DNA of 64,000 bases from Escherichia phage Mangalyan, in sequence record OR449013; one strand, 5' to 3'. Below are positions 2,351 through 14,593 of this stretch, one piece after another (position 1 is the stretch's first letter; every line of letters begins with the position of its first letter). The notes under the pieces are model-generated. The model made no database searches. It saw only the letters and a program-made list of their open reading frames with translations, and was not told the origin of the DNA. The position numbers were made by a program, and so were the translations under genes.

Positions 2351-2542
2351 ATGACACTAAAGTTAACAGTTCCAGACAGCTTTTCAGAAAACTTTATCCC
2401 AGAAATGATGGATAAGATGCGATCATTGCTTGATCAGATTGAAGAGGCTGTTTGGGAAGACGATGCTGTAGTGGCTAACGAGCTGGTAGATAAGTGTAAA
2501 AGTATTATTGATGCAGTTGAAGAATACCACGGAGGTTTTTGA
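2351..2542 (+). CDS. hypothetical small acidic protein
   Basis: SD GGAGA 5 nt before ATG 2351; stop overlaps next start (TGATG). Confidence 0.4.
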   Translation: MTLKLTVPDSFSENFIPEMMDKMRSLLDQIEEAVWEDDAVVANELVDKCKSIIDAVEEYHGGF

Positions 2543-3156
2543 TGGATATTATTGTTCTTAACGCCCCACCTAGTAGTGGTAAGGATCACATTGCAGATCT
2601 CTTGTTGGAAGCTATTCCTAACTCACACCATCGTGAGGTTAAGGAGATGCTCTTCAGCGTGGCAATTAAGGCAGCTGGTGTAACTCCTCAACTCTGGAAT
2701 GCACTTTATGACCGCCACTACAAAGAAGAGCCTTGCCCTTTCTTAATGATAGACGGTAAGCATGTTTCTCCGCGAGAGTGGATGATCCATTGTAGTGAAA
2801 ATCTGATTAAACCTATCTTTGGTGAAGATGCTTTCGGTAAGGCCGCAGTCACATCCTTGAAGAAAGATTTCCCTAAAGGTAAAGGGGTTGTTGTTTACTC
2901 CGATGGTGGATTCAAAGAGGAGCTGGCATGCCTTAGTGAGTACGCATACAGCACAGGTGGAGATCTGTTGTTGTTCCGTATTCACCGTGTCGGATATGAC
3001 TGGGGAAATGATTCCAGAACCTATCTAAGTCTGGAAAAGAACGGAATAAAAGGGATTGAGTTCGATGTTGTAAACCCTGAAGGTGCACCTTGGGAGTGTG
3101 CATCGGAGATTGTGTGCAAGTATATTGATGCTAAAGAGGCCCAAGAAGAATGTTAA
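2542..3156 (+). CDS. deoxynucleoside monophosphate kinase-like (P-loop) protein
   Basis: SD GGAGG; N-terminal P-loop LNAPPSSGKD resembles the start of phage dNMP kinases. Confidence 0.5.
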   Translation: MDIIVLNAPPSSGKDHIADLLLEAIPNSHHREVKEMLFSVAIKAAGVTPQLWNALYDRHYKEEPCPFLMIDGKHVSPREWMIHCSENLIKPIFGEDAFGKAAVTSLKKDFPKGKGVVVYSDGGFKEELACLSEYAYSTGGDLLLFRIHRVGYDWGNDSRTYLSLEKNGIKGIEFDVVNPEGAPWECASEIVCKYIDAKEAQEEC

Positions 3157-3743
3157 TCGGAATTGATGTAGATTTGACACTGGTAGATTCAGGAACAGCA
3201 TGGTGGGAGTGGTTGGAGCGTTTGTATGGTCCAGCCAGTAAGACAGTCGCTAAACCTTCTAATGGACTGATGTATTACGATCTGTCAAAGTATTGGCCTG
3301 ATCGCCCCAAAGAAAACATCATAGGGCCTTTTGATTTCTGGAGTGACCCATTCCTCTACGACTTTCTTAAGCCTGAAGAGGGGGCTATTGAGGTTATGAA
3401 AGATTTGGTGGCTCGTGGTCACAAGCTTGCATTTATCTCGGTATGCAAGAAAGGTCACCTTGCATCTAAATCAAGGTTCTTAAAGCGTTGGACCAGTGAT
3501 TTTATGGATCTGGACGATCACACCCAGGGTCACGGCTTCTACGCCACACATTTCAAAGGAAATGTGGCTGTAGATGTTATAATTGACGACAGGCATGAAT
3601 ACCTTAACCAATTCGCTTCACGACCTGAAGTTATTAAAATCCTAAAAGATACGCCTTATGAGCAATTCGAGGAGTTAAAGGTCAGTGTTGACTATACCGC
3701 CAATAGCTGGTATAAAATAGGAAAGTTTTTAGAAGGTATTTGA
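3150..3743 (+). CDS. HAD-superfamily 5'-(deoxy)nucleotidase-like protein
   Basis: N-terminal GIDVDLTLVD matches HAD motif I DxDxT; later IIDDRHEY. Confidence 0.45.
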   Translation: MLIGIDVDLTLVDSGTAWWEWLERLYGPASKTVAKPSNGLMYYDLSKYWPDRPKENIIGPFDFWSDPFLYDFLKPEEGAIEVMKDLVARGHKLAFISVCKKGHLASKSRFLKRWTSDFMDLDDHTQGHGFYATHFKGNVAVDVIIDDRHEYLNQFASRPEVIKILKDTPYEQFEELKVSVDYTANSWYKIGKFLEGI

Positions 3744-3945: not shown

Positions 3946-4928
3946 TGCTAAAACTGTGCACTGCAAAGATCATTGCTGACAGCATTTCCGAGAAAGGTAA
4001 GCGTATCACCACTTTTGAGCTAGAGTATCCTCGAATTATTCACTCAGAGCTTATGACGCACCGAGTGTTCAGCCGAAACGCCATGTCTTCCCGTGCAGTT
4101 CCTGTCGGCAAGATGCTGCAGCAGATTGTGGAGAATCCGGCAATGCCAGTTCGCTTCGGTGTAAATAAGCGAGGTATGGAAGATGGTGGAGAACACGATC
4201 AAAAGATCCGTGTAGAGTACACTGACATGGAGCTAACCCCTGAAGAGTTTTGGAAAGAAGCTGCAAAAAACGCCGCTTGGCATGCAGAGAAGTTCGCCCT
4301 TGCTGGTTACCATAAACAAGTATGTAACCGCTTAGTGGAGCCGTTTCAGCGCATGAAAACAGTTGTAACAAGCACAGAGTGGAATAATTTTTTCCATCTC
4401 CGTTGCTGGCACGATGCGGATCCTACGATTCAGATGTTGGCTAATTGTATGTGGGAAGCTCTTGTGAATAGCACTCCTGAAATCCTTAAACCATGGCAAT
4501 GGCACACTCCATATGTAGAGCACGTTTATTTGGACGGAGAGTTTAACTACGCTGTACGTGACACAGAAGGAAAGCTCTGCATTCTCGATACTAAAGAAGC
4601 TCTGTCTATCAGTGCTAGTTGCTGTGCACAAGTATCTTATCGAAATATTGACAGCACGTTTGAAAAGGCAGACAGTGTGGCTAAAAAATTGATTGGTGGG
4701 GATCGTATCCATGCAAGCCCTTACGAGCACCAGGCAACACCTATGGATCACGATAACGCAATGGAACGTTTAAACTACTACCTGTCTTCATGTGAAATCA
4801 CACAAGACAGCTGTGTTTGGCAGGAAGGTGTAACCCATCAAGACCGTGATGGTAAATTCTGGTCTGCCAACTTTTGTGGGTGGGTTCAGCACAGACAACT
4901 GCTTAATAACCACTTCGTGAAAGGTTAA
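3945..4928 (+). CDS. thyX: FAD-dependent thymidylate synthase ThyX-like protein
   Basis: SD AGGAGAG; ELMTHRVFSRNAMSSR resembles the ThyX RHRxxSxNxxSxRY block; HLRCWHDADPTIQ resembles ThyX LRADSHAQWEIQ; divergent, with a C-terminal extension. Confidence 0.55.
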   Translation: MLKLCTAKIIADSISEKGKRITTFELEYPRIIHSELMTHRVFSRNAMSSRAVPVGKMLQQIVENPAMPVRFGVNKRGMEDGGEHDQKIRVEYTDMELTPEEFWKEAAKNAAWHAEKFALAGYHKQVCNRLVEPFQRMKTVVTSTEWNNFFHLRCWHDADPTIQMLANCMWEALVNSTPEILKPWQWHTPYVEHVYLDGEFNYAVRDTEGKLCILDTKEALSISASCCAQVSYRNIDSTFEKADSVAKKLIGGDRIHASPYEHQATPMDHDNAMERLNYYLSSCEITQDSCVWQEGVTHQDRDGKFWSANFCGWVQHRQLLNNHFVKG

Positions 4929-4929
4929 T

Positions 4930-4957
4930 CCTATCACAGCGATAGGTAACTTTTGTG
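4930..4957 (+). terminator. weak hairpin terminator after thyX-like gene
   Basis: CCTATC-acagc-GATAGG then taacTTTTgtg. Confidence 0.3.
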
Positions 4958-4986
4958 TTGACTAATAGTATCAGATAATCTATAAT
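4958..4986 (+). promoter_or_regulatory. sigma70-like promoter
   Basis: TTGACT, 17-nt spacer, TATAAT. Confidence 0.6.
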
Positions 4987-5014
4987 AATGGCTCACTTTG
5001 TTGGTGAGCCAGAA

Positions 5015-5488
5015 ATGGAGACAGATATGAGTAATGTTATGATTCCTAAAAAGACATTTATTTCAGTTACTTTAGATTTCCTAGCTACCGTCCCTGGGTT
5101 TAACGTTCGCACACGAAACGGTCTCCGAGCTGCACTCTTTGCCGTAGGGTTTGATTTAAAAAGTATTGATGTTCTTCGTGGAAAAAACGTTCGATGCAAA
5201 AATAAGCCAACACATTATCGAAAGGCAGATGTATTTGCTGGTGTTATGCGTGCAGACTTTAGATACCCGCAAATGTATAACGGTGTAGATATTTTAGATG
5301 TGGATAAAGCACCTGGTGAGGCAATGCTTGTTCAAGATCTCCCGTATGATATCCCAGTAGAGGATCGTGTTAATGTAAGAAAGTATACAAAACAATCTGA
5401 AAAGGCTGAAGATATTCATATTGTTGATGAACCTTTCAATTTTGAAGATCTGCATCGCCTGGAAAAATTATTCGGTATTGAAAGCTAA
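5015..5488 (+). CDS. hypothetical protein
   Basis: ORF track start 4988 lies 1 nt after the -10, so a downstream in-frame ATG is preferred (5015 with GGTGAG SD, or 5027 with GGAGA SD). Confidence 0.45.
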   Translation: METDMSNVMIPKKTFISVTLDFLATVPGFNVRTRNGLRAALFAVGFDLKSIDVLRGKNVRCKNKPTHYRKADVFAGVMRADFRYPQMYNGVDILDVDKAPGEAMLVQDLPYDIPVEDRVNVRKYTKQSEKAEDIHIVDEPFNFEDLHRLEKLFGIES

Positions 5489-5498
5489 GGTGGTGAAG

Positions 5499-5729
5499 AT
5501 GAGCCATAACTCCAAGTGGAAGGATCTTGGTTTTGCAAGTCGGGCAGAGTATGTTGGTTGGCTTTGGTTCAACGGCCTGACAAACGATATTAAAATGTAT
5601 GATGATGTTTATTATGACGAGTATACAGGTAAAATTATAAATATCTCTGTAGAAGAGGATACCTTTATCCAGCAAGATACTGATACCTGCCTTGATAAAT
5701 ACGTTAATGAAGTGGAGGAAGCAAATTGA
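5499..5729 (+). CDS. hypothetical protein
   Basis: ATG 5499 preceded by AAGGTGGTG; track ORF 5421..5729 trimmed. Confidence 0.45.
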   Translation: MSHNSKWKDLGFASRAEYVGWLWFNGLTNDIKMYDDVYYDEYTGKIINISVEEDTFIQQDTDTCLDKYVNEVEEAN

Positions 5730-8041
5730 TCACCAAGGTAATTAAAAGCAACGGATGTGAGGTAGCATTCGATCCAGAACGTTTAAATAAGGCAGCTATT
5801 TTCGGTGACGACGGTAACGGCAATTGGTCACATATTGCACTGGATGCATACAAACGACTGTATGATGGATGTACAACCAAAGAAGTTAACCAAGCTATCA
5901 TAGACTCCTGTGTTAGCCGTAAAGACGAAGCACATTCCCGTATGGCTGGTCGTGTTCTTATTGGTCAGATTTATAAAGAGGCTTTTGGAGGGTTTACAAA
6001 GATCCCTTCCTTACCATCATTTTACAATACCATGGTTGAGAAAGGGTATTGGGAGGATATGGGCTATAGCTTTACCGAGCTAAACACTTTAGACGCTGTT
6101 ATTGACCACAGTAAAGATCTCGGTTATGGCTATGCAGTCCTTAAACAGTTTCGCGACAAATACGGGATCAAGGATACTCTTAAAGACACCTTGTTTGAAT
6201 CTCCCCAGATGATGTTTATGGGGATAGCAATGGCTGTCATGAAGAATATGCCGAAAGAACGTCGTATCAACGATGTTGTAAAATTATACACTTATCTGTC
6301 CGACTTAAAGATCAATGCCCCGACACCGTACTTAAACGGGCTGCGCACAGGTAAGACAGGGTATGCATCTTGTTGTGTAATAAAAGCTGACGATACAGCA
6401 AAATCTATTGGTGTGGCACGTGAAGTTGCGTACACAATGACGGTTAACCAAGCAGGTATCGGCTACTATTTATCATCAAGATCTGCAGGCGATGGTGTTC
6501 GTGGTAACACTATTAAACACATGGGTAAGATTCCATATTATCGAGGTATTGATGCTGGGGTTAAGGAGAACAGACAACAATCACGTGGCGGTTCTGCAAC
6601 AGTATCATTTCTTGCACTAGACCCGCAGATTGATGAGCTAATCCGTTTGAGAAACCCTATGACTGTTGCTTCAAAAAGAATCAACACCATGGACTACTCC
6701 ATCGGTATTAATAGGTCGTTTATCAACCGTGTGGCTAAGAATTTGGATTGGATGCTTGTTTCTTATAAGCACGCGCCTCAACTGCATGAGGGTATCTTCA
6801 CCATGTCTATGGAGGAGTTTGATGCAGAGGTTGATCGTATTGCTAAAGATGACAGTATTCCTAAAACATGGATCCGGGCCAGAGATCTTGCTGTTGAACT
6901 GATCACGCAGCGTACTGAGGTGGGAAGGCTGTATGTATACTGGACAGATGAGATGAATAGACATACACCTTTTAAAGATGTGATCTATTCAAGTAACCTG
7001 TGTGCAGAAATAGCCCTCCCGACAAAAGGCTATTCAGATATGCGTAATATCTTCAAGTACGATGCTGATGATGGAGAGGTTGCATTGTGCTTCCTGTCAT
7101 CTCTTGTAGCTGGGAGGGTTACTCCAGAGGAGTATGAGGATGTTGCATACTATACGGTGCTTATGATTGACAATGTTATGGAAATCATGACATATCCGTA
7201 TGAAAATATGGAAAGCACAGTTAAAAAACGCAGATCCATCGGGGTTGGCCTTACCAATGTTGCACATTTTATTGCCAGCCACAAGGTTACTTACGGATCT
7301 CCTGAAAGTAAACAGCTCGTTCACGATCTTGCAGAACTTCACAGCTACAGCTTGCATAAGGCAAGTTTACGGTTGGCAAAAGAGCGTGGTGTCTGCGAGT
7401 GGATGCATAAAACAAAATATCCAGAAGGTTGGTTACCAATCGACACCTATAACAAAGAGGTCGATAGCGTGGTGAAAGATCCTTCTCTTAAACAGGATTG
7501 GGAAGGGTTACGTAAAGAAATCATTGAAAATGGTGGGCTACGTAATAGCGTTCTTGAAGCATATATGCCTAATGAAAGCTCTTCGCTGGCAACAAACACC
7601 ACTAACGGGGTCTATCCTGTCCGTGAGCACATTATCTTTAAAAAGTCGCCACAAGGGCAGGTGCTGTTTATCGTTCCTGACTATGATGAGTTGAAAGAGT
7701 ATTACACTTCGGCTTGGGACGTTGATACTAACGACATGATCGATATGTATGCTGTGATTCAAAAATTCACAGGTCAGGCAATCAGCGCGGATTTGTACAT
7801 AGACTACACCAAGTTGAAAGATGGTAAAATTTCAATGAAGGAGCAGCTAGGGTACCTTATCCGTGCCACTAAATTCGGAATGAAGACATGGTATTATTTA
7901 AACTCTAGGGTTGGTGCTGGCGACTCCTTGGCAGAGGAACTTCATGCCAAGAAACAGGCTGAAGATGAAACCAGAAAGAACTATCCTTTGAATGCAGATA
8001 GTTCAGTTGAAGATCAGTATTGCGAAAGTTGTGCACTATAA
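5726..8041 (+). CDS. nrdA: class I ribonucleotide reductase large subunit
   Basis: 771 aa; N-terminal ATP-cone-like VIKSNGCEVAFDPERLNK; active-site block SSNLCAEIALP; TTG start after GGAGGAAG. Confidence 0.85.
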   Translation: MITKVIKSNGCEVAFDPERLNKAAIFGDDGNGNWSHIALDAYKRLYDGCTTKEVNQAIIDSCVSRKDEAHSRMAGRVLIGQIYKEAFGGFTKIPSLPSFYNTMVEKGYWEDMGYSFTELNTLDAVIDHSKDLGYGYAVLKQFRDKYGIKDTLKDTLFESPQMMFMGIAMAVMKNMPKERRINDVVKLYTYLSDLKINAPTPYLNGLRTGKTGYASCCVIKADDTAKSIGVAREVAYTMTVNQAGIGYYLSSRSAGDGVRGNTIKHMGKIPYYRGIDAGVKENRQQSRGGSATVSFLALDPQIDELIRLRNPMTVASKRINTMDYSIGINRSFINRVAKNLDWMLVSYKHAPQLHEGIFTMSMEEFDAEVDRIAKDDSIPKTWIRARDLAVELITQRTEVGRLYVYWTDEMNRHTPFKDVIYSSNLCAEIALPTKGYSDMRNIFKYDADDGEVALCFLSSLVAGRVTPEEYEDVAYYTVLMIDNVMEIMTYPYENMESTVKKRRSIGVGLTNVAHFIASHKVTYGSPESKQLVHDLAELHSYSLHKASLRLAKERGVCEWMHKTKYPEGWLPIDTYNKEVDSVVKDPSLKQDWEGLRKEIIENGGLRNSVLEAYMPNESSSLATNTTNGVYPVREHIIFKKSPQGQVLFIVPDYDELKEYYTSAWDVDTNDMIDMYAVIQKFTGQAISADLYIDYTKLKDGKISMKEQLGYLIRATKFGMKTWYYLNSRVGAGDSLAEELHAKKQAEDETRKNYPLNADSSVEDQYCESCAL

Positions 8042-9172: not shown

Positions 9173-9451
9173 ATGAGCTGTGAAAAATCTTTTTTCTTTA
9201 TTATTTACGGTAAAGATAACTGCCCACATTGTGTAAGAGCAAAAGAATTTGCAGTCAGTAAGGGTCTGCCTTTTGTATATAAGACACTTGGCGAGGGTTA
9301 CACAAAAGAAGAGCTTATTGAGAAGTGCAGTCCAATCGTACCCAGAACGTTGCCGCAGATCTTCTTAGAAAGTAATCTTGAAAGTGTCCATATAGGCGGT
9401 GCCGACGATTTCATCTCTTTTGTTAAGAATGGTTTTGGAGAGAAAAAGTGA
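9173..9451 (+). CDS. glutaredoxin/thioredoxin-like protein (NrdH/NrdC-like)
   Basis: 92 aa with CPHC redox motif; located between nrdB and nrdD. Confidence 0.6.
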   Translation: MSCEKSFFFIIYGKDNCPHCVRAKEFAVSKGLPFVYKTLGEGYTKEELIEKCSPIVPRTLPQIFLESNLESVHIGGADDFISFVKNGFGEKK

Positions 9452-10308
9452 AAGTTGTAAAACGGGACGGTAGAGAAGAGGTCTATAACGGAATTAAGGT
9501 GATCAAGGCGGCAGAGTCCGCCTTACTTGAGTCTGGACATACTGAAGAAGAAGCTTACCGGATCGCCTGCGCGGTTAATGAAGTTGTTGCTAACACTCTA
9601 CCAACCGACCAGTGCACGATCTCTGTAAAAAATATCCATATCCTTGTTGAAGACGCTCTTATGGATATGGGTTTAAAATGTGCAGCCAGAGAATACATCC
9701 AGTATAGGCAGACAAGAGATAATAATAGAGAGGCAGGTGGAAAACTGCTTGCAGATATTAGTGGCTTCTTGGATCGCACTTGTGATGAATTTACAAAAGA
9801 AAACGCAAATAAGCCTACCAATCATGTACACACTCATCGTGACCTGCTTGCAGGCATCCTTAGCAAACACCTTGCATCAACACAGATCCTGCCAGACCGT
9901 GTCTCAGAAGAGCACAATAGAGGCTTCATCCATGTGCATGATCTTGACTACTTGATCAGTCCGTTAACAAACTGTTGTTTGGTAAATTATCCAGATATGT
10001 TGGAAAACGGATTCAACATTGGTAACGCCCATGTCAGTAAGCCGAAGTCAATAGGGGTTGCAACAACAATCCTTAGCCAAATCTCTAGTGCAGTAGCTAG
10101 TGCTCAATATGGTGGTCAGACTATGAGCCATATTGATCATTATCTGGCACAGTATGCTGAAGCGACCTATGAGAAGAACCTTAAATTTTGCCAGGAACAT
10201 TGGTTGCCAGATGCTGAGACTGTTGCAATGCAAATGACAGATAAAGACGTATTTGACAGCATGCAGACTTTGCTCTATCAAATCAATACGTTAACTTCTG
10301 TCAACGGT
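9448..10308 (+). CDS. nrdD: anaerobic ribonucleotide reductase NrdD, exon 1
   Basis: ATP-cone start MKVVKRDGREEVYNGIKV; frame ends ...LYQINTLTSVNG; last exon base is T, as expected for a group I 5' splice site. Confidence 0.75.
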
Positions 10309-11099
10309 TAACAAACTGGCCGTTGTAAAACTCTCCTAACCTCATAAGAGGGGTCGGTAAATCCGGCTAACGGGGAACGCTAAGGCGAAAGCTATGCCAA
10401 TCCCGTGACTAGTTCTTACAGGAGTTGGAACGGTTGTAACGACTAACGAAAGGCAGAGATGCTTGACAAACATTTCTGAACCAAGTAGTGTAGGGGTTAG
10501 TTGAAATACTAACTTCGAAATGGAGAGGCTCTATGAAAAAGATCATTCTTAATGGTGAAGAATCAAACTATGTGATTGATGAGGTTGGAAACGTATACGG
10601 AAAACGTGGAATGCTACACCCAATATTGTGGGGAGGTTATGGAAAAGGTAAAAAGCATGTTAAACGCCGTTATATGTACTCTTTCAACCACAAAGGTAAA
10701 AAGATTCGAATCCAAACCTCAAGGATTGTTGCCTTGTATTGTTTGCCGGATGTCCCAGAAGACCCTGAAAACTGGGAAGTGAATCATAAAGATGGCAATA
10801 CATTGAATGATCATCCGTCTAACCTAGAGTGGGTTTTGCCGGAAGATAATAAGAGACATGCTTTCCGAACAGGACTTTGTCCAGGTAAGTGCTATAGGAA
10901 AGTGCAGGCATACAAAGGGAAAACCTTGGTGGGTGAATATCCTTCACTCTATGCCTGTGCAAAAGCCTTAAATTTGAACGTAGGTAACGTTCATAGGGCT
11001 ATCGAAGGAAATGCCGAAGGTAAGCATCTCACAATAAAGGGTTATTATCTTATTGAAGTAGAGTAAGAGATAGTCTGGCCCTGTGGAAACACAGGGAGG
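10309..11099 (+). mobile_element. group I intron interrupting nrdD (boundaries +/- a few nt)
   Basis: nrdD reading frame breaks at 10309 and resumes in another frame at ~11100; 5' part 10312-10532 is ORF-free and GC-rich with GNRA-like loops (GCGAAAGC); internal HNH ORF; intron ends in G. Confidence 0.6.
10533..11066 (+). CDS. intron-encoded HNH homing endonuclease
   Basis: 177 aa; HNH block EVNHKDGNTLNDHPSNLEWVLPEDNKRHA; SD GGAGAGG before ATG; lies entirely inside the nrdD interruption. Confidence 0.65.
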   Translation: MKKIILNGEESNYVIDEVGNVYGKRGMLHPILWGGYGKGKKHVKRRYMYSFNHKGKKIRIQTSRIVALYCLPDVPEDPENWEVNHKDGNTLNDHPSNLEWVLPEDNKRHAFRTGLCPGKCYRKVQAYKGKTLVGEYPSLYACAKALNLNVGNVHRAIEGNAEGKHLTIKGYYLIEVE

Positions 11100-12368
11100 A
11101 GACAGCAGACTCCATTCATCACATTGAGTTTAGGACTGGATACCTCGGTCTTTGGTAGAATGATTACCAAAAACTACTTGAAAGTCCACAAAATGGGTCT
11201 TGGTGAAGAACGTATTACACCTGTATTCCCTAAAGTGCTGTTCTTCCTGGAAGAGGGTGTTAACATGAACCCTGGGGATCCTAACTATGATTTGAAACGA
11301 TTAGCTCTGGAATGCTGTGCAGAACGTATCTACCCTGACTTCGTATCTGTACCACTAAATAGAAAAGTGACAGGCTCGACAGATGGCAAAGTAACGAGCA
11401 TGGGTTGCCGGAGTTTTCTTAGCAAATATAATGACTTGGAAACAGGTGAGGAAAAATACCTTGGCAGATTCAACTTGGGTGTTGTTAGCCTTAACCTGCC
11501 AATGATTGCGGCAAAAGCTAAGACGGAAGGTGTTGATTTCTTTGCAGTTCTTGACGAATACTTGGATCTTGCATACGAGGCTCACCTTGTAAGGGTTAAC
11601 CGTCTAAAAGGAACAAAGGCAGGGCAGAACCCCATCATGTGGTGTGAAGGCGCTCTTGCTCGCCTGGATCCTGAAGAAAGTATTGATAAACTCTTCTATG
11701 ACGGGTACGCTTCCATCAGCATTGGGTATATTGGTGTGTATGAAACCTGTCAGATTTTGGGCAGAGAGGGTGACAAGGCTTTAGCTCTTGGAATCCTTCA
11801 GCACATGAGAGATGCTTGTGAGCGATACAAGAAGGAAAGTAGACTAGCGTTTAGCTTGTACGGCACCCCTTCTGAGAGTCTATGCTATAAAGCTGCAACC
11901 TGTCTGGATCGTGAATATCCTGAAGTGTTGAAGCACGAGCATGAATATCTCACCAACAGTTTCCATCAGCCAGTATGGATCAATAGCTCTCCTTTTGATA
12001 AGTGGGCGTATGAGGAAGGTTTTGCTATGATCTCCTCTGGTGGCAACATCGGATATGTAGAGACACCGAATCTGAAAAACAACTTAGATGCTTTAGAGGC
12101 TCTTGTTGACTTCGGGTATAAACACATTATGTATTTTGGTATTAACCAACCTGTGGATAAATGTCTCAAGTGTGGTTTCTCTGGGGAGTTCAGTGCAACA
12201 GCTAAAGGCTTTGTATGCCCAGAGTGTGGAAACCATGAAGAGGGAACGATCAGTGTGATCAGACGTGTGTCTGGATACCTTTCCAGTCCTAACTCCCGTC
12301 CTTATAATAAAGGTAAGCAAGCGGAAGTTATCGAGCGAGTTAAGCACTATGGAAGTTGTAGTTGCTGA
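11100..12368 (+). CDS. nrdD: anaerobic ribonucleotide reductase NrdD, exon 2
   Basis: frame reads RQQTPFITLSLGLDTS... from 11100 (no start codon needed); C-terminal Cys4 CLKCG...CPECG and glycyl-radical motif RVSGYL. Confidence 0.75.
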   Translation, partial: RQQTPFITLSLGLDTSVFGRMITKNYLKVHKMGLGEERITPVFPKVLFFLEEGVNMNPGDPNYDLKRLALECCAERIYPDFVSVPLNRKVTGSTDGKVTSMGCRSFLSKYNDLETGEEKYLGRFNLGVVSLNLPMIAAKAKTEGVDFFAVLDEYLDLAYEAHLVRVNRLKGTKAGQNPIMWCEGALARLDPEESIDKLFYDGYASISIGYIGVYETCQILGREGDKALALGILQHMRDACERYKKESRLAFSLYGTPSESLCYKAATCLDREYPEVLKHEHEYLTNSFHQPVWINSSPFDKWAYEEGFAMISSGGNIGYVETPNLKNNLDALEALVDFGYKHIMYFGINQPVDKCLKCGFSGEFSATAKGFVCPECGNHEEGTISVIRRVSGYLSSPNSRPYNKGKQAEVIERVKHYGSCSC

Positions 12369-12432
12369 TACTTGACAAAAGCCACAAGGATGTGGCACCA
12401 TACAGATGTTTAGGGAAGTTAGGAAACAAGAG

Positions 12433-13566
12433 ATGGCTAAATTATCGACAGAAGAGTTTATAGAGAAGGCGAAAATCATTCACGGTTATAAATACAATTA
12501 CAAGAAAACAGTGTACGTGGATTGCTATGCGAAGGTTTGCATTACCTGTCAAATCCATGGAGATTTTATGCAAGCACCTTGTCAACACTTGCAAGGTCGT
12601 GGTTGTCCTTTTTGTGCAAAACTTTCTCGTGCTACAAAGTGTAATAAAGGTCTTAAATTTGTAGAAAGAGCCAAAGAAATCCATGGAGATAACTATGACT
12701 ACTCTCTCGTATACTACAAGACTTGCAAAGATAAAGTAGAAATAATCTGCAATACTTGTGGAAATCACTTTACACAGACACCTGACAATCATATAAATTT
12801 GAAAAGAGGTTGTCCAGTTTGCAAGGGGTCAAGAATCTCACAAAGCAAAACCAAACCTCATGAAAAGTGGGTTGAGGACATAGAGAAGAAAAATACTTAT
12901 ATTGAAATATTAGAAGAGATCACCACTGGGTGGAATAAAGTATTATGTCGTTGCAAAGTTTGCAACCACGAATGGTCAGCTACGCCTGTTATCCTTAAGC
13001 GTGGTCACGGCTGCCCCGGATGTGGCGGATCTATGAAAAAGACCACTGAAGAGTTTATCCAGGACGCTGTGGCTATCCACGGGAACAAGTATGATTACTC
13101 TAAAGTGAGGTATGTGAATTCACACATCAAGGTTACAATTGTTTGCACAGATCATGGAGATTTCTGTCAATCCCCTACCCAGCATTTAGGAGGGGGAGGG
13201 TGTCCTAAATGCACCAAAAGAGGATTTTTATCCCACGATTGTGGTAAACTTTACATTATGGTTGATGATCCGGAAGTGCCTACATTTATGAAAATAGGTG
13301 TCAGTCATAATGAAAGTAAGCGAAGAGACCAGATACTTAAAAGTGCACAAAGATCTGGAGCTGGTATCTGCGATCTGTACATAGTGAAAACGTTGGAAGG
13401 ATCAACTGAAAACATGCTGGCTGTAGAAAAATCTATGCACAAAGCCTTCAGTAAATATAAAATAAACTTCCCTGTAAAATTTGATGGTAGCACCGAATTC
13501 TTCTACTACAGGCCTGAGGTGTTCAGCACAGTGGAAGCAGCGTACAAAGAGATCTGCGGTAAATGA
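12433..13566 (+). CDS. multi-zinc-ribbon protein with C-terminal T5orf172/GIY-YIG-like domain
   Basis: four tandem ~45-aa modules (IHG.KY.Y ... GCPxC); C-terminal YIMVDD...KIGVS...R...E resembles the GIY-YIG/T5orf172 fold; SD AGGAAA before ATG 12433. Confidence 0.5.
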   Translation: MAKLSTEEFIEKAKIIHGYKYNYKKTVYVDCYAKVCITCQIHGDFMQAPCQHLQGRGCPFCAKLSRATKCNKGLKFVERAKEIHGDNYDYSLVYYKTCKDKVEIICNTCGNHFTQTPDNHINLKRGCPVCKGSRISQSKTKPHEKWVEDIEKKNTYIEILEEITTGWNKVLCRCKVCNHEWSATPVILKRGHGCPGCGGSMKKTTEEFIQDAVAIHGNKYDYSKVRYVNSHIKVTIVCTDHGDFCQSPTQHLGGGGCPKCTKRGFLSHDCGKLYIMVDDPEVPTFMKIGVSHNESKRRDQILKSAQRSGAGICDLYIVKTLEGSTENMLAVEKSMHKAFSKYKINFPVKFDGSTEFFYYRPEVFSTVEAAYKEICGK

Positions 13567-13618
13567 TCGTAGAAAGATACACATATCTTAAACATGCTAT
13601 AAACTAAGGAGGTACAGT

Positions 13619-13735
13619 ATGTCTACAGGCATTTATAAAATTTGCAAGTGTGGTTGTCGTTGCAATCTTCGTTGGTGCAAGGCACTGGACGATTTTATTT
13701 GGCATTGTCCTGAATGCGATGCAGAGTACTTATAA
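13619..13735 (+). CDS. small Cys-rich (zinc-ribbon-like) peptide, 38 aa
   Basis: perfect SD AAGGAGG 7 nt before ATG; 8 Cys in CKCGCRC...CPEC; below the track's 60-aa cutoff. Confidence 0.4.
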   Translation: MSTGIYKICKCGCRCNLRWCKALDDFIWHCPECDAEYL

Positions 13736-13886: not shown

Positions 13887-14123
13887 ATGGTAGGTGTCTG
13901 TGTAAAAGCTAACAGATGGTTTACATTCGGCAAGGATTACGAAATTATCTTTCATTCGGACAGAGCCACAACAGTAGAAAGCGATGATGGGTGCTACTGG
14001 TTCGTTAGTTACCAGGGTGATGGGTATTATAGATCTACTGATTCCAGAGGGGAAGAAGCTGTTTTCTTAGATAGAGCTTATTGTGGGCCTGAATATCCCT
14101 ACCTCAAAGAGGGTAAGGAATGA
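13887..14123 (+). CDS. hypothetical protein
   Basis: 78-aa ORF; stop overlaps nrdG start. Confidence 0.45.
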   Translation: MVGVCVKANRWFTFGKDYEIIFHSDRATTVESDDGCYWFVSYQGDGYYRSTDSRGEEAVFLDRAYCGPEYPYLKEGKE

Positions 14124-14593
14124 ATGTTGTTAATATTATAGAGTGTAGCATGGTTGACGGCCCAGGCATTAGGACAACGGTGTTCTGTTCTGGTTGTCCA
14201 CATCACTGCGTTGGTTGCCAAAACAAAAGTGTTTGGTCACCCGCTAAAGGGGAACCGTTAACAAATGACACAATTGAGAGTATACTTCACTCTATAGAGC
14301 CGAAACATATTACTGGCGTTACATTATGCGGTGGCGAACCTTTAGCGCCTTACAATATCGATGGTATGTACTCGATCATTCTCGCTATCCGTGAACGCTT
14401 CGGCAACACAAAAACTATCTGGGTGTACACAGGGTATTTGTTTGAAGAAGTCCCAGGTTATATTAAAGATAGTGTCGATTACATTATGGATGGTAAGTAC
14501 GAAAAAGATAACCCCACCAAAAAACCATTCAGAGGTAGTGATAACCAAAGAATGTTTAAAAAAGTATCAGGCGGTTGGGTTCAGGTAGACTAG
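14120..14593 (+). CDS. nrdG: anaerobic RNR activating enzyme (radical SAM)
   Basis: 157 aa; CSGCPHHCVGC (Cx3Cx2C radical-SAM cluster); adjacent to nrdD. Confidence 0.75.
   Translation: MNVVNIIECSMVDGPGIRTTVFCSGCPHHCVGCQNKSVWSPAKGEPLTNDTIESILHSIEPKHITGVTLCGGEPLAPYNIDGMYSIILAIRERFGNTKTIWVYTGYLFEEVPGYIKDSVDYIMDGKYEKDNPTKKPFRGSDNQRMFKKVSGGWVQVD

Follow-up and report, generated by a model that had tools for sequence, protein, structure and literature searches.

Relatives of the element reported here are known among the group I introns of phages. In T4, nrdD (sunY) is interrupted within the Tyr180 codon (YE|YEVNTL) by an intron whose compact core fills the whole RF00028 model (105 bits), lacks hairpins between P3 and J3/4, and lies upstream of the GIY-YIG gene I-TevII (core at 5653-5884 and I-TevII at 4837-5613 of T4 locus L008, minus strand). 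IA2 introns with HNH genes occur in the DNA polymerase genes of the T7-like PhiI/W31 and of cyanophage Pf-WMP3 (I-PfoP3I); they share GUA-linked P7.1 and P7.2, a U·G splice site, a short P10 and an HNH endonuclease with the intron analyzed below, but their ORF is in P6a and they have no P2, whereas ours has its ORF in P8 and two extra hairpins (PMC3428280). In CB7, a related member of the Vequintavirinae, HNH-containing introns splice in vivo, as determined by RT-PCR (PMC7344957). A literature search on the nrdD intron of rV5-type phages found neither a description of the ribozyme nor evidence of splicing.

We analyzed a stretch of 64,000 nucleotides from Escherichia phage Mangalyan (OR449013; the window), which represents a Vequintavirus (rV5-like) and whose nrdD locus is 98.6% identical to that of phage WalterGehring. 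Our reading, to which we assign a probability of about 0.9, is that the nrdD gene of this rV5-like coliphage carries a 797-nt group I intron with its own HNH homing endonuclease gene. The figure applies to the whole explanation, a mobile phage IA2-type intron in nrdD, of which we infer the splicing and homing part. The reading is supported by the logic of the splice sites, by core helices with compensatory changes, and by alleles that lack either the intron or its ORF.

The T4 nrdD intron had been proposed in a first-pass annotation as the architectural match. Both introns reside in the same host gene, belong to phage group IA, begin with UAA and have GUAAAA followed by the 5' strand of P3. 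However, neither the insertion site nor the ORF places the window intron in the T4 sunY lineage, as the T4 site is 32 nt upstream of that in the window, which is located between the equivalents of Gly190 and Gln191, and the T4 ORF is a GIY-YIG gene 3' of the core, whereas P7', P9 and the omega-G follow the HNH ORF in the window. A sunY-like ribozyme is present in some rV5-like phages at a third site (SMG|CRSF), and is absent from the window.

Exons and splice junction of nrdD

The exon 1 frame extends from GTG at 9448 to GGT at 10306-10308, followed by TAA at 10309-11, and U10308, with which exon 1 ends, is the uridine of the 5' splice site (Table 1). ORF reading and the split of Pfam NRDD both bear out the earlier observation that the nrdD frame stops at 10308 and resumes in a different frame. 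The NRDD match is continuous over the junction, passing from position 154 to 156, and its downstream part begins at 11106, the third codon counted from 11100. On the other hand, the 3' boundary first placed at about 11099|11100 is actually at 11105|11106, 6 nt downstream, as shown by the intron-less phages rV5 and A6-1, whose sequence, AACGG-GCAAACTCC, aligns collinearly with 10308|11106 and falls 6 nt short of the join proposed before. The same spliced product with an identical junction is on record as a joined CDS (GenBank QXV85697.1, RefSeq YP_011997805.1). According to this CDS and to the intron-less alleles, the residues RQ originally attributed to NrdD are intron sequence and not protein, and no RQQTPF version of the protein was present in the sequence collection searched. 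The gap of 790 nt consequently becomes 797 nt, with 39 nt instead of about 33 nt separating the ORF stop from the corrected splice site. The codons at the joined site in intron-less sister phages are AAC GGG CAA ACT (SVNG|QTPF), and the spliced protein of the window has its junction in the same register. The insertion point separates the Gly codon from the Gln codon in the conserved NGQTPF motif. An omega-G closes the intron (G11105|C11106) and its excision restores an uninterrupted gene, a situation repeated in seven intron-bearing loci.

Table 1. Coordinates of the nrdD exons, predicted intron helices and intron ORF in the window.
Feature	Position	Strand	Description
nrdD exon 1	9448..10308	+	ATP-cone and first part of NRDD domain; Pfam NRDD positions 1-154
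Group I (IA2-like) intron	10309..11105	+	797 nt; in-frame UAA at start, omega-G 11105 at end
nrdD exon 2	11106..12368	+	Rest of NRDD domain, glycyl-radical domain, C-terminal Zn site; Pfam NRDD 156-562 and Gly_radical
P1	10302..10325	+	Exon CAACGGU 10302-10308 / guide GCCGUUG 10319-10325; 7 bp; MFE folds
P10 guide	10316-10318	+	CUG, pairs with exon-2 CAG 11106-11108; 3 bp
P3 5' strand	10331..10336	+	CUCUCC; partner 10522-10527; found by unconstrained MFE
Two extra hairpins, P3 5' strand to J3/4	10340..10368	+	A, CCUC AUAA GAGG 10340-51; B, GGUCGG UAAAU CCGGCU 10352-68
J3/4, P4, P5 (P and Q consensus elements)	10369..10406	+	UAA; ACGGGG/UCCCGU; P5 with GAAA loop
P6 and P6a	10407..10435	+	GACU/GGUU; GUUCU...GGAAC; folds
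R element	10436..10445	+	GUAACGACUA; direct reading; matches RF00028 consensus GUUCAaAGACUA
P7.1, linker, P7.2	10454..10516	+	Unconstrained MFE and centroid
P7.1	10454-61 / 10471-78	+	CAGAGAUG / CAUUUCUG
GUA linker	10490-92	+	
P7.2	10493-501 / 10508-16	+	GGGGUUAGU / ACUAACUUC
P3 3' strand	10522..10527	+	GGAGAG; doubles as Shine-Dalgarno of the HNH ORF, 5 nt upstream of ATG
P8 5' strand	10528..10533	+	GCUCUA; pairs with UAGAGU 11059-11064; abuts P3 3' strand
I-HmuI-like HNH homing endonuclease ORF (putative)	10533..11066	+	177 aa; fills P8 loop
P8 3' strand, J8/7, P7 3' strand	11059..11075	+	P8 3' strand 11059-64; S element AAGAGAUAGUC 11065-75
P9 hairpin	11079..11096	+	CCCUGUG-GAAA-CACAGGG

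The same reading frames refute the possibility of an intein or another protein-level element. Phage RNR genes often contain inteins (PMC3653736), but the insert opens with an in-frame stop, its frame differs from those of both exons, the HNH ORF is delimited by a start and a stop of its own, and no Hint-domain match was obtained.

The locus could also be conceived as a gene in pieces that is never spliced, in which the HNH gene and its flanks have split nrdD, so that its product would consist of two polypeptides that together form an active enzyme. Such a role has a precedent in mobE, which split nrdA in Aeromonas phage Aeh1 (PMC3653736, PMC7344957), one HNH insertion of CB7 failed to splice (PMC7344957), and nrdD is annotated in most GenBank records as two separate CDSs, with those of the sister phages mostly showing two or three instead of a join. 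Nevertheless, we consider a gene in pieces highly improbable. A split gene of the Aeh1 nrdA type would have its own start downstream and no ribozyme, whereas here a ribozyme core is present and exon 2 has neither a start codon nor a Shine-Dalgarno sequence at 11106. Its first in-frame start is a TTG at 11124, without a Shine-Dalgarno sequence upstream and already past the conserved QTPFIT residues, which counts against independent translation of exon 2, and a promoter scan inside the intron returned no promoter-like site. Moreover, in an ORF-less allele of 257 nt the ribozyme is complete and UAA again interrupts the frame, a combination that would be senseless for a plain endonuclease insertion, and the RNA helices are maintained by compensatory changes.

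Predicted ribozyme fold and its conservation

Folds and a P3 control revealed a group I core in the intron, comprising the P3-P8 and P4-P6 domains, the P3/P7 pseudoknot and the P, Q, R and S elements. The fold of the ORF-deleted RNA was 6.1 sd better than those of dinucleotide shuffles (z = -6.1), with none of 100 shuffles being as good, so the arrangement is not due to chance. Unconstrained MFE folding recovered P1, P3, P4-P6a, P7.1, P7.2, P8 and P9, and the same architecture was obtained for seven introns folded with only P7 blocked. As claimed in the first-pass annotation, the segment upstream of the ORF (10309-10532, 224 nt) is free of ORFs and contains GNRA-like loops, in the form of GAAA tetraloops, with a further GAAA loop closing P9 downstream of the ORF; its description as GC-rich holds poorly, as its GC content is 47% compared to about 41-45% in the flanks.

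Comparison of the window-type intron with the 257-nt ORF-less allele showed compensatory changes in P1, P3, hairpin B, P6a and P9. In P1, where the splice-site uridine forms the U10308·G10319 pair, the ORF-less allele has AAACGGU/GCCGUUU, a C-G to A-U change. P3 covaries as CUCUGC/GCAGGG in bov10K2, CUCUGC/GCAGAG in the IMG/VR contig L012, GAGCGCC/GGCGCUC in L015, CGUGGU/GCCACG in L014 and CUCAUUG/UAGUGAG in L021. As the 3' half of the MAFFT alignment of seven introns was too poor for a formal pair count, this covariation was assessed on landmark-defined strands with an own-versus-cross control, in which the duplexes gave -9.1 kcal/mol for own strands and -2.7 kcal/mol for cross strands. The hairpins A and B were predicted in all seven introns folded and appear in viral contigs at the same place with other stem sequences; one pair of hairpin B is G-C in the window, G·U in L012 and A-U in bov10K2. 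The P6a stem of the ORF-less allele, GCUUCAC/GUGAGGC, differs in sequence and keeps its position, and its P9 (CCUUGUG/CAUAAGG) shows a compensatory C-G to U-A change and a G-C to G·U change.

The P7 5' strand, GACUA at 10441-45 within an R element that is conserved in related introns, pairs with UAGUC at 11071-75, forming a pseudoknot with P3. The S element aligned to the RF00028 consensus AAGAUAUAGUC at high posterior probability, and a pattern scan found the motif TAACGGGGAA...GAAA...CAATCCCGT, aligned to P4/P5 of RF00028, in 19 viral contigs. P8 directly follows P3' in all seven introns, and the P8 pair G10528·U11064 is A-U in phage FV3. Two other pairings, GGGGU...GC with ACCUU as P3 and ACUUCGA with UUGAAGU as P8, were dropped, as folding and cross-species comparison gave CUCUCC/GGAGAG and GCUCUA/UAGAGU, respectively.

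Introns are assigned to subgroup IA2 when a G-U-A linker joins two extra helices, P7.1 and P7.2, located between P7 and P3' (PMC3428280). The predicted folds display this arrangement both in the window and in the ORF-less allele, where P7.1 (ACC-UUUU-GGU) and GUA are followed by P7.2 (GGGAUU/GAUUCC). The P7.1 region of the window-type intron draws its support from folding alone.

At the gathering threshold of RF00028 (50 bits), no match was found in a scan of the whole window or in sibling loci, and none of nine ORF-less relatives from viral contigs reached it. The Rfam search proposed as a check gave significant E-values at scores below gathering: 27.7 bits (E 7.7e-5) for the window, where the ORF interrupts the model, and 29.8 bits (E 8.1e-6) for an ORF-less sibling, covered end to end over the full model length. 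The window alignment is convincing for J8/7-P7'-P9 only, its 5' half being set inside the ORF, which is not credible. Low scores plausibly result from the two extra hairpins in J3/4, as the model misplaces P3; shortcomings of RF00028 with phage introns have been described (PMC11878797).

The sub-threshold score could also be taken as a sign of decay, in which case the ribozyme would splice poorly and nrdD would effectively be a pseudogene, tolerated given the class I RNR. The genes for the latter, nrdA and nrdB, are indeed intact next door in the same phage, so a poorly splicing intron might be tolerated, and T4 I-TevIII illustrates that parts of introns can decay (database annotation). We nonetheless judge a decayed intron very unlikely, given the plausible effect of the hairpins on the score and the fact that all core helices are intact in the window intron. 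With respect to FV3, the ribozyme parts differ at only three positions, one of the changes turning the P8 G·U into A-U, and the 3' tail has one substitution and one inserted nucleotide. Differences between these intron carriers fall mainly at third codon positions (28 of 32 in exon 2, 15 of 19 in exon 1 and 16 of 18 in the HNH ORF), a pattern indicating purifying selection on both exons and on the HNH ORF.

Tentatively, this intron may represent a sub-class of IA2-like introns, widespread in phages, in which the P3 5' strand and J3/4 are separated by two additional hairpins that covary. The rV5-type introns and the nine ORF-less members from viral contigs all score below RF00028 gathering, and the current Rfam model under-scores introns with these hairpins; pieces of the core motif are present in 246 phage records. 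The position between the P3 5' strand and J3/4 is empty in T4 sunY, and the td and Twort introns are not known to have hairpins there. A literature search on P3.1/P3.2 nomenclature found nothing. A dedicated model would reveal many unannotated phage introns, provided that the sub-class has not been described before.

The HNH ORF and the proposed splicing and homing pathway

The 177-aa HNH ORF reported in the first-pass annotation was confirmed by a match to Pfam HNH_3 (29.3 bits, cut-off 24.8) and by alignment with I-HmuI (PDB 1U3E; residues 8-160, E 2.6e-4), in which the HKDGN...N...NLxWV motif is aligned. The I-HmuI NUMOD-like domain was detected under its cut-off (18.4 bits vs 27), PHROG 59 matched at 8.8e-27, and the protein is identical to WNM70544.1 of phage Mangalyan. 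On the basis of these motifs, the product is a putative I-HmuI-like HNH homing endonuclease. It resembles I-HmuI of Bacillus phage SPO1 in length (177 vs 174 aa), over a 153-residue alignment, and in its layout of HNH_3 followed by a NUMOD-like domain, but their identity is low, the host gene and the phage lineage are different, and I-HmuI nicks, whereas the activity of the window enzyme is putative.

The ATG of the ORF begins in the P8 5' strand and its TAA begins in the P8 3' strand, with P8 (10528-33 / 11059-64) closing exactly around it; therefore, the ORF is inside the P8 loop and not 3' of the catalytic core as first supposed, since J8/7, the P7 3' strand (UAGUC, 11071-75) and P9 are all downstream. 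The ORF of the SPO1 intron also sits in P8.

From these features we propose that a single pre-mRNA would be transcribed from nrdD, with ribosomes on exon 1 halting at the UAA that opens the intron while the RNA folds into the P1-P10 ribozyme. Exogenous guanosine would then attack after U10308, and exon 1 would subsequently attack after omega-G 11105, joining ...AAC GGU|CAG ACU... to yield a 707-aa NrdD with the length and register found in intron-less relatives. The endonuclease encoded in the P8 loop would have the P3 3' strand as its ribosome binding site and its start codon in P8, so it may be translatable only from RNA that is not folded as a ribozyme. In a mixed infection, the enzyme would presumably nick or cut an intron-less nrdD near GTCAACGG|GCAAACTCC, and recombinational repair would copy the intron in (homing).

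Distribution of the alleles and meaning for rV5-like phages

Of about 119 rV5-like phages, the intron is present with its ORF in 28 and as the 257-nt ORF-less form, at the same position, in 14, whereas about 77 are free of it. In the sister Vequintaviruses WalterGehring/Bas51 (QXV85697.1), FV3, slur16, FFH2 and JEP1, the gene DNA is 94.5-98.6% identical to that of the window and the junction is the same, as is the HNH protein, with no difference of substance. Intron identity is 97.2-99.9% where that of exon 2 is 89-98%. A patchy distribution together with an intron more conserved than exon 2 is a signature of mobility.

The ORF-less intron is carried by bov10K2, AlexBoehm, navn, Shigella phage CM1 and the contig L012. 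It shares with the window intron the segment from P1 to the 5' half of P7 (86% identical) as well as J8/7, P7' and P9, whereas its P7.1, P7.2, P3' and P8 are unrelated in sequence and adopt the same fold. The exon codons beside the site are CAA ACC CCT in this allele and CAG ACT CCA in the window.

Selfish elements of this kind are ordinary in phages and already annotated, and the current understanding of group I introns is unchanged. For annotation, what appears in most rV5-like genomes as two nrdD fragments and a "hypothetical protein" corresponds to one gene and the homing endonuclease carried by its intron, and the protein is correctly joined as SVNG|QTPF. T4-like and rV5-like phages further show independent invasions of nrdD at three conserved sites that lie close together, and the intron-less, ORF-less and ORF-containing alleles of close coliphages constitute a natural series for the cycle of gain and loss of homing endonucleases.

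Reading frames and boundaries of the split nrdD gene

The first-pass annotation had described nrdD as split, with an HNH ORF between its pieces, and this arrangement proved real in the ORF list (see table) and in profile searches. In Pfam, the first nrdD piece corresponds to the ATP-cone plus positions 1-154 of the NRDD profile, and the second to NRDD positions 156-562 plus the glycyl-radical domain, with the NRDD match of the second piece beginning at 11106, the third codon when translated from 11100. The product of the 177-aa ORF gave a Pfam match to HNH_3 above threshold and also matched an I-HmuI NUMOD-like module, aligned to I-HmuI (PDB 1U3E; residues 8-160, E 2.6e-4), and matched PHROG 59, annotated as 'HNH endonuclease'. 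This protein is restricted to rV5-like phages, its next relatives sharing less than 40% identity with it. The reading frames exclude an intein as the explanation for the interrupted gene.

In this region the window shares 98.6% identity with Escherichia phage WalterGehring and 94-98% with many further rV5-like phages (Vequintavirus). About 18-19 records labeled 'Campylobacter phage' (host C. jejuni, e.g. MG065655, MG065644) also share >93% identity with this region of an E. coli Vequintavirus, which suggests mislabeled hosts or coliphage contamination in that data set. Among the approximately 119 rV5-like phages with this part of nrdD, 28 have a 797-nt insert containing the HNH ORF, 14 have a 257-nt ORF-less insert in the same place, and the remainder, rV5 included, have no insert.

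Aligned to both exon ends, the intron-less phages rV5 and A6-1 read ...GTC AAC GGG CAA ACT CCA... (SVNG|QTPF; putative endonuclease target in rV5, GTCAACGGGCAAACTCCATTC), so exon 2 starts at C11106, the last intron base is G11105, and the intron spans 10309-11105. The ORF-less allele follows the same rule (...ACCG|CAAACC). The 3' boundary proposed earlier, which produced an RQQTPF join, had to be abandoned, as rV5 and A6-1 are six bases shorter. An exact-sequence look-up found the product joined at 10308|11106 as the protein of the joined WalterGehring CDS in GenBank and RefSeq, and the RQQTPF version in no database. The identical junction is thus already annotated in public records; no description of an rV5-type nrdD intron was found in the literature searched.

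Features of the interrupted nrdD region
Feature	Position or sequence	Strand	Basis
nrdD frame, first piece	GTG 9448, stop TAA 10309-11	+	ORF list
HNH ORF, 177 aa	10533-11066	+	ORF list
nrdD, second piece	downstream of HNH ORF, other frame	+	ORF list
P1	CAACGGU / GCCGUUG	+	unconstrained fold
P3, long-range	CUCUCC 10331-36 / GGAGAG 10522-27	+	unconstrained fold
P4-P5 with GAAA loop; P6-P6a		+	unconstrained fold
P7.1, P7.2		+	unconstrained fold
P8, adjoining P3' directly	GCUCUA 10528-33 / UAGAGU 11059-64	+	unconstrained fold
P9 with GAAA loop		+	unconstrained fold
P7 strands, unpaired in fold, complementary	GACUA 10441-45 / UAGUC 11071-75	+	sequence

Fold of the insert and its comparative support

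The ORF-deleted RNA was folded without constraint and its energy compared with that of shuffles, over which it was 6.1 sd better. U10308, preceding the 5' splice site, pairs with G10319 in the 7-bp P1, CUG at 10316-18 can form P10 with CAG at 11106-08, the first three bases of exon 2, and the final intron base is G. Exon position -1 (10308) is T (GGT) in intron-carrying alleles versus G (GGG) in rV5 and A6-1, and position +3 (11108) is G (CAG) in the window type versus CAA; both differences are synonymous and agree with the U·G pair of P1 and with P10, and they may also change the endonuclease target. The two P7 strands fall within the R (GUAACGACUA) and S (AAGAGAUAGUC) elements, which are canonical, and the complementarity of these strands implies a P3/P7 pseudoknot. 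P7.1 and P7.2 are present with a GUA linker between them, the published criterion for subgroup IA2 (PMC3428280).

Folded independently, the ORF-less allele and five unrelated introns from viral contigs, which have nothing but the P4-P5 motif in common with the window, gave the same architecture. Each lineage has its own P3 sequence, yet complementarity is kept: with strands set by neighboring landmarks only, own pairs averaged -9.1 versus -2.7 kcal/mol for cross pairs. Window and ORF-less types show compensatory changes in four places, namely P1 (C-G to A-U), P3 (C-G to G-C), hairpin B (a G-C, G·U, A-U series) and P9 (C-G to U-A), and P6a has another stem sequence at an unchanged position. A gene split without splicing, as in Aeh1 nrdA, is unlikely given this maintenance of helices, the lack of a start or Shine-Dalgarno sequence in exon 2, and the retention by the ORF-less allele of a structured 257-nt insert with an in-frame stop. 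Judged from sequence, this is an unremarkable group I intron of phage IA2 type with an HNH homing endonuclease.

Relation to the Rfam model and to the T4 nrdD intron

The check by Rfam group I models formally fell short, since a whole-window scan with RF00028 gave no match at gathering score. The window scored 27.7 bits (E 7.7e-5), with a credible alignment only for J8/7-P7'-P9, and the ORF-less sibling 29.8 bits (E 8.1e-6) over the full model length; P3 was misplaced by the model. None of nine ORF-less relatives in viral contigs reached gathering, a score attained by unrelated introns on those contigs and by the T4 nrdD intron, sunY (105 bits). Where phage introns carry endonuclease loops, RF00028 has been described as matching partially or not at all (PMC11878797). 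The window intron has two extra hairpins, A (10340-51) and B (10352-68), located between the P3 5' strand and J3/4; in sunY this position is empty. Covarying hairpins A/B are common to the introns of 19 viral contigs with the motif TAACGGGGAA..GAAA..CAATCCCGT (loci L010-L028), none of which reached gathering, and 246 phage records contain parts of this motif, among them those of Geobacillus, Enterococcus, Vibrio, Bacillus and T7-like Yersinia and Pectobacterium phages. The hairpin pair, common to a broad set of phage introns under-scored by Rfam, might be new. The sub-gathering score thus has an explanation, and the direct evidence from structure weighs more. One unrelated contig, L026, collected only for its intron motif, also carries several tRNAs and a type II hammerhead ribozyme match (13592-13660; 38.7 bits, gathering 37).

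The ORF had been placed 3' of the catalytic core, as in T4, which does not hold: J8/7, P7', P9 and omega-G all lie downstream of it, and the ORF is enclosed exactly by P8, whose 5' strand ends with the A of ATG and whose 3' strand ends with the U of TAA. The T4 core is complete upstream of I-TevII, whereas here core parts lie on both sides of the ORF. Both introns open with an in-frame UAA, but that of T4 interrupts the codon for Tyr in YE|YEVNTL, lying 32 nt upstream of the window site, and carries a GIY-YIG rather than an HNH gene.

A second nrdD intron was observed at ATGGGT|TGC (SMG|CRSF, which we take to be the catalytic-cysteine motif) in some rV5-like phages, namely JEP1, phita32, 'Campylobacter' phage C2 and an IMG/VR contig (L012), a site empty in the window (11405|11406). 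It is ~260 nt without an ORF in L012 (2285-2543; 70.5 bits on RF00028) and ~771 nt with a 169-aa HNH ORF in JEP1 (L002, ~2459-3228). Its ribozyme closely resembles the sunY core, with long identical runs (e.g. GCUCAUGUAAAAUCU, UGAAGAUAUAGUCUGA), and its upstream exon context is AUGGGU versus AUGAGU in T4, indicating a sunY-type ribozyme at a different, P1-compatible site.

Expression, selection and mobility

In the proposed mechanism, the pre-mRNA would fold into the ribozyme, guanosine would attack after U10308, and exon ligation after G11105 would yield a 707-aa NrdD. Upstream of the HNH ORF, a good Shine-Dalgarno sequence (GGAG, 10522-25) lies within the P3 3' strand, and the ATG is in P8, so that endonuclease translation and ribozyme folding should be mutually exclusive. 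No sigma-70-like promoter was found in the intron. HNH-bearing introns of the related Vequintavirinae phage CB7, in genes other than nrdD, were spliced according to RT-PCR (PMC7344957).

Differences from phage FV3 fall mostly at third codon positions in exon 2 (28/32), exon 1 (15/19) and the HNH ORF (16/18), which shows purifying selection on all three in intron-carrying phages, a pattern that fits an nrdD still expressed and an active endonuclease. This pattern and the intact core disfavor a decayed intron that no longer splices.

Between nrdD and nrdG (14120-14593) lies a 386-aa ORF (12406-13566, + strand) whose product contains two stretches of DUF4379 treble-clef zinc finger, has a T5orf172/MUG113 domain at its C terminus and matches PHROG 681 'endonuclease'. 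It is annotated as 'putative homing endonuclease' in WalterGehring and absent from bov10K2, in which nrdG soon follows nrdD; it probably encodes a free-standing homing endonuclease.

As for the group I intron itself, its identity among carriers is 97.2-99.9% versus 89-98% for exon 2, and its presence does not track exon similarity, exon 2 of the intron-less A6-1 departing from the window only at position +3. Such higher conservation of the intron, together with a presence unlinked to exon similarity, is what homing would predict.
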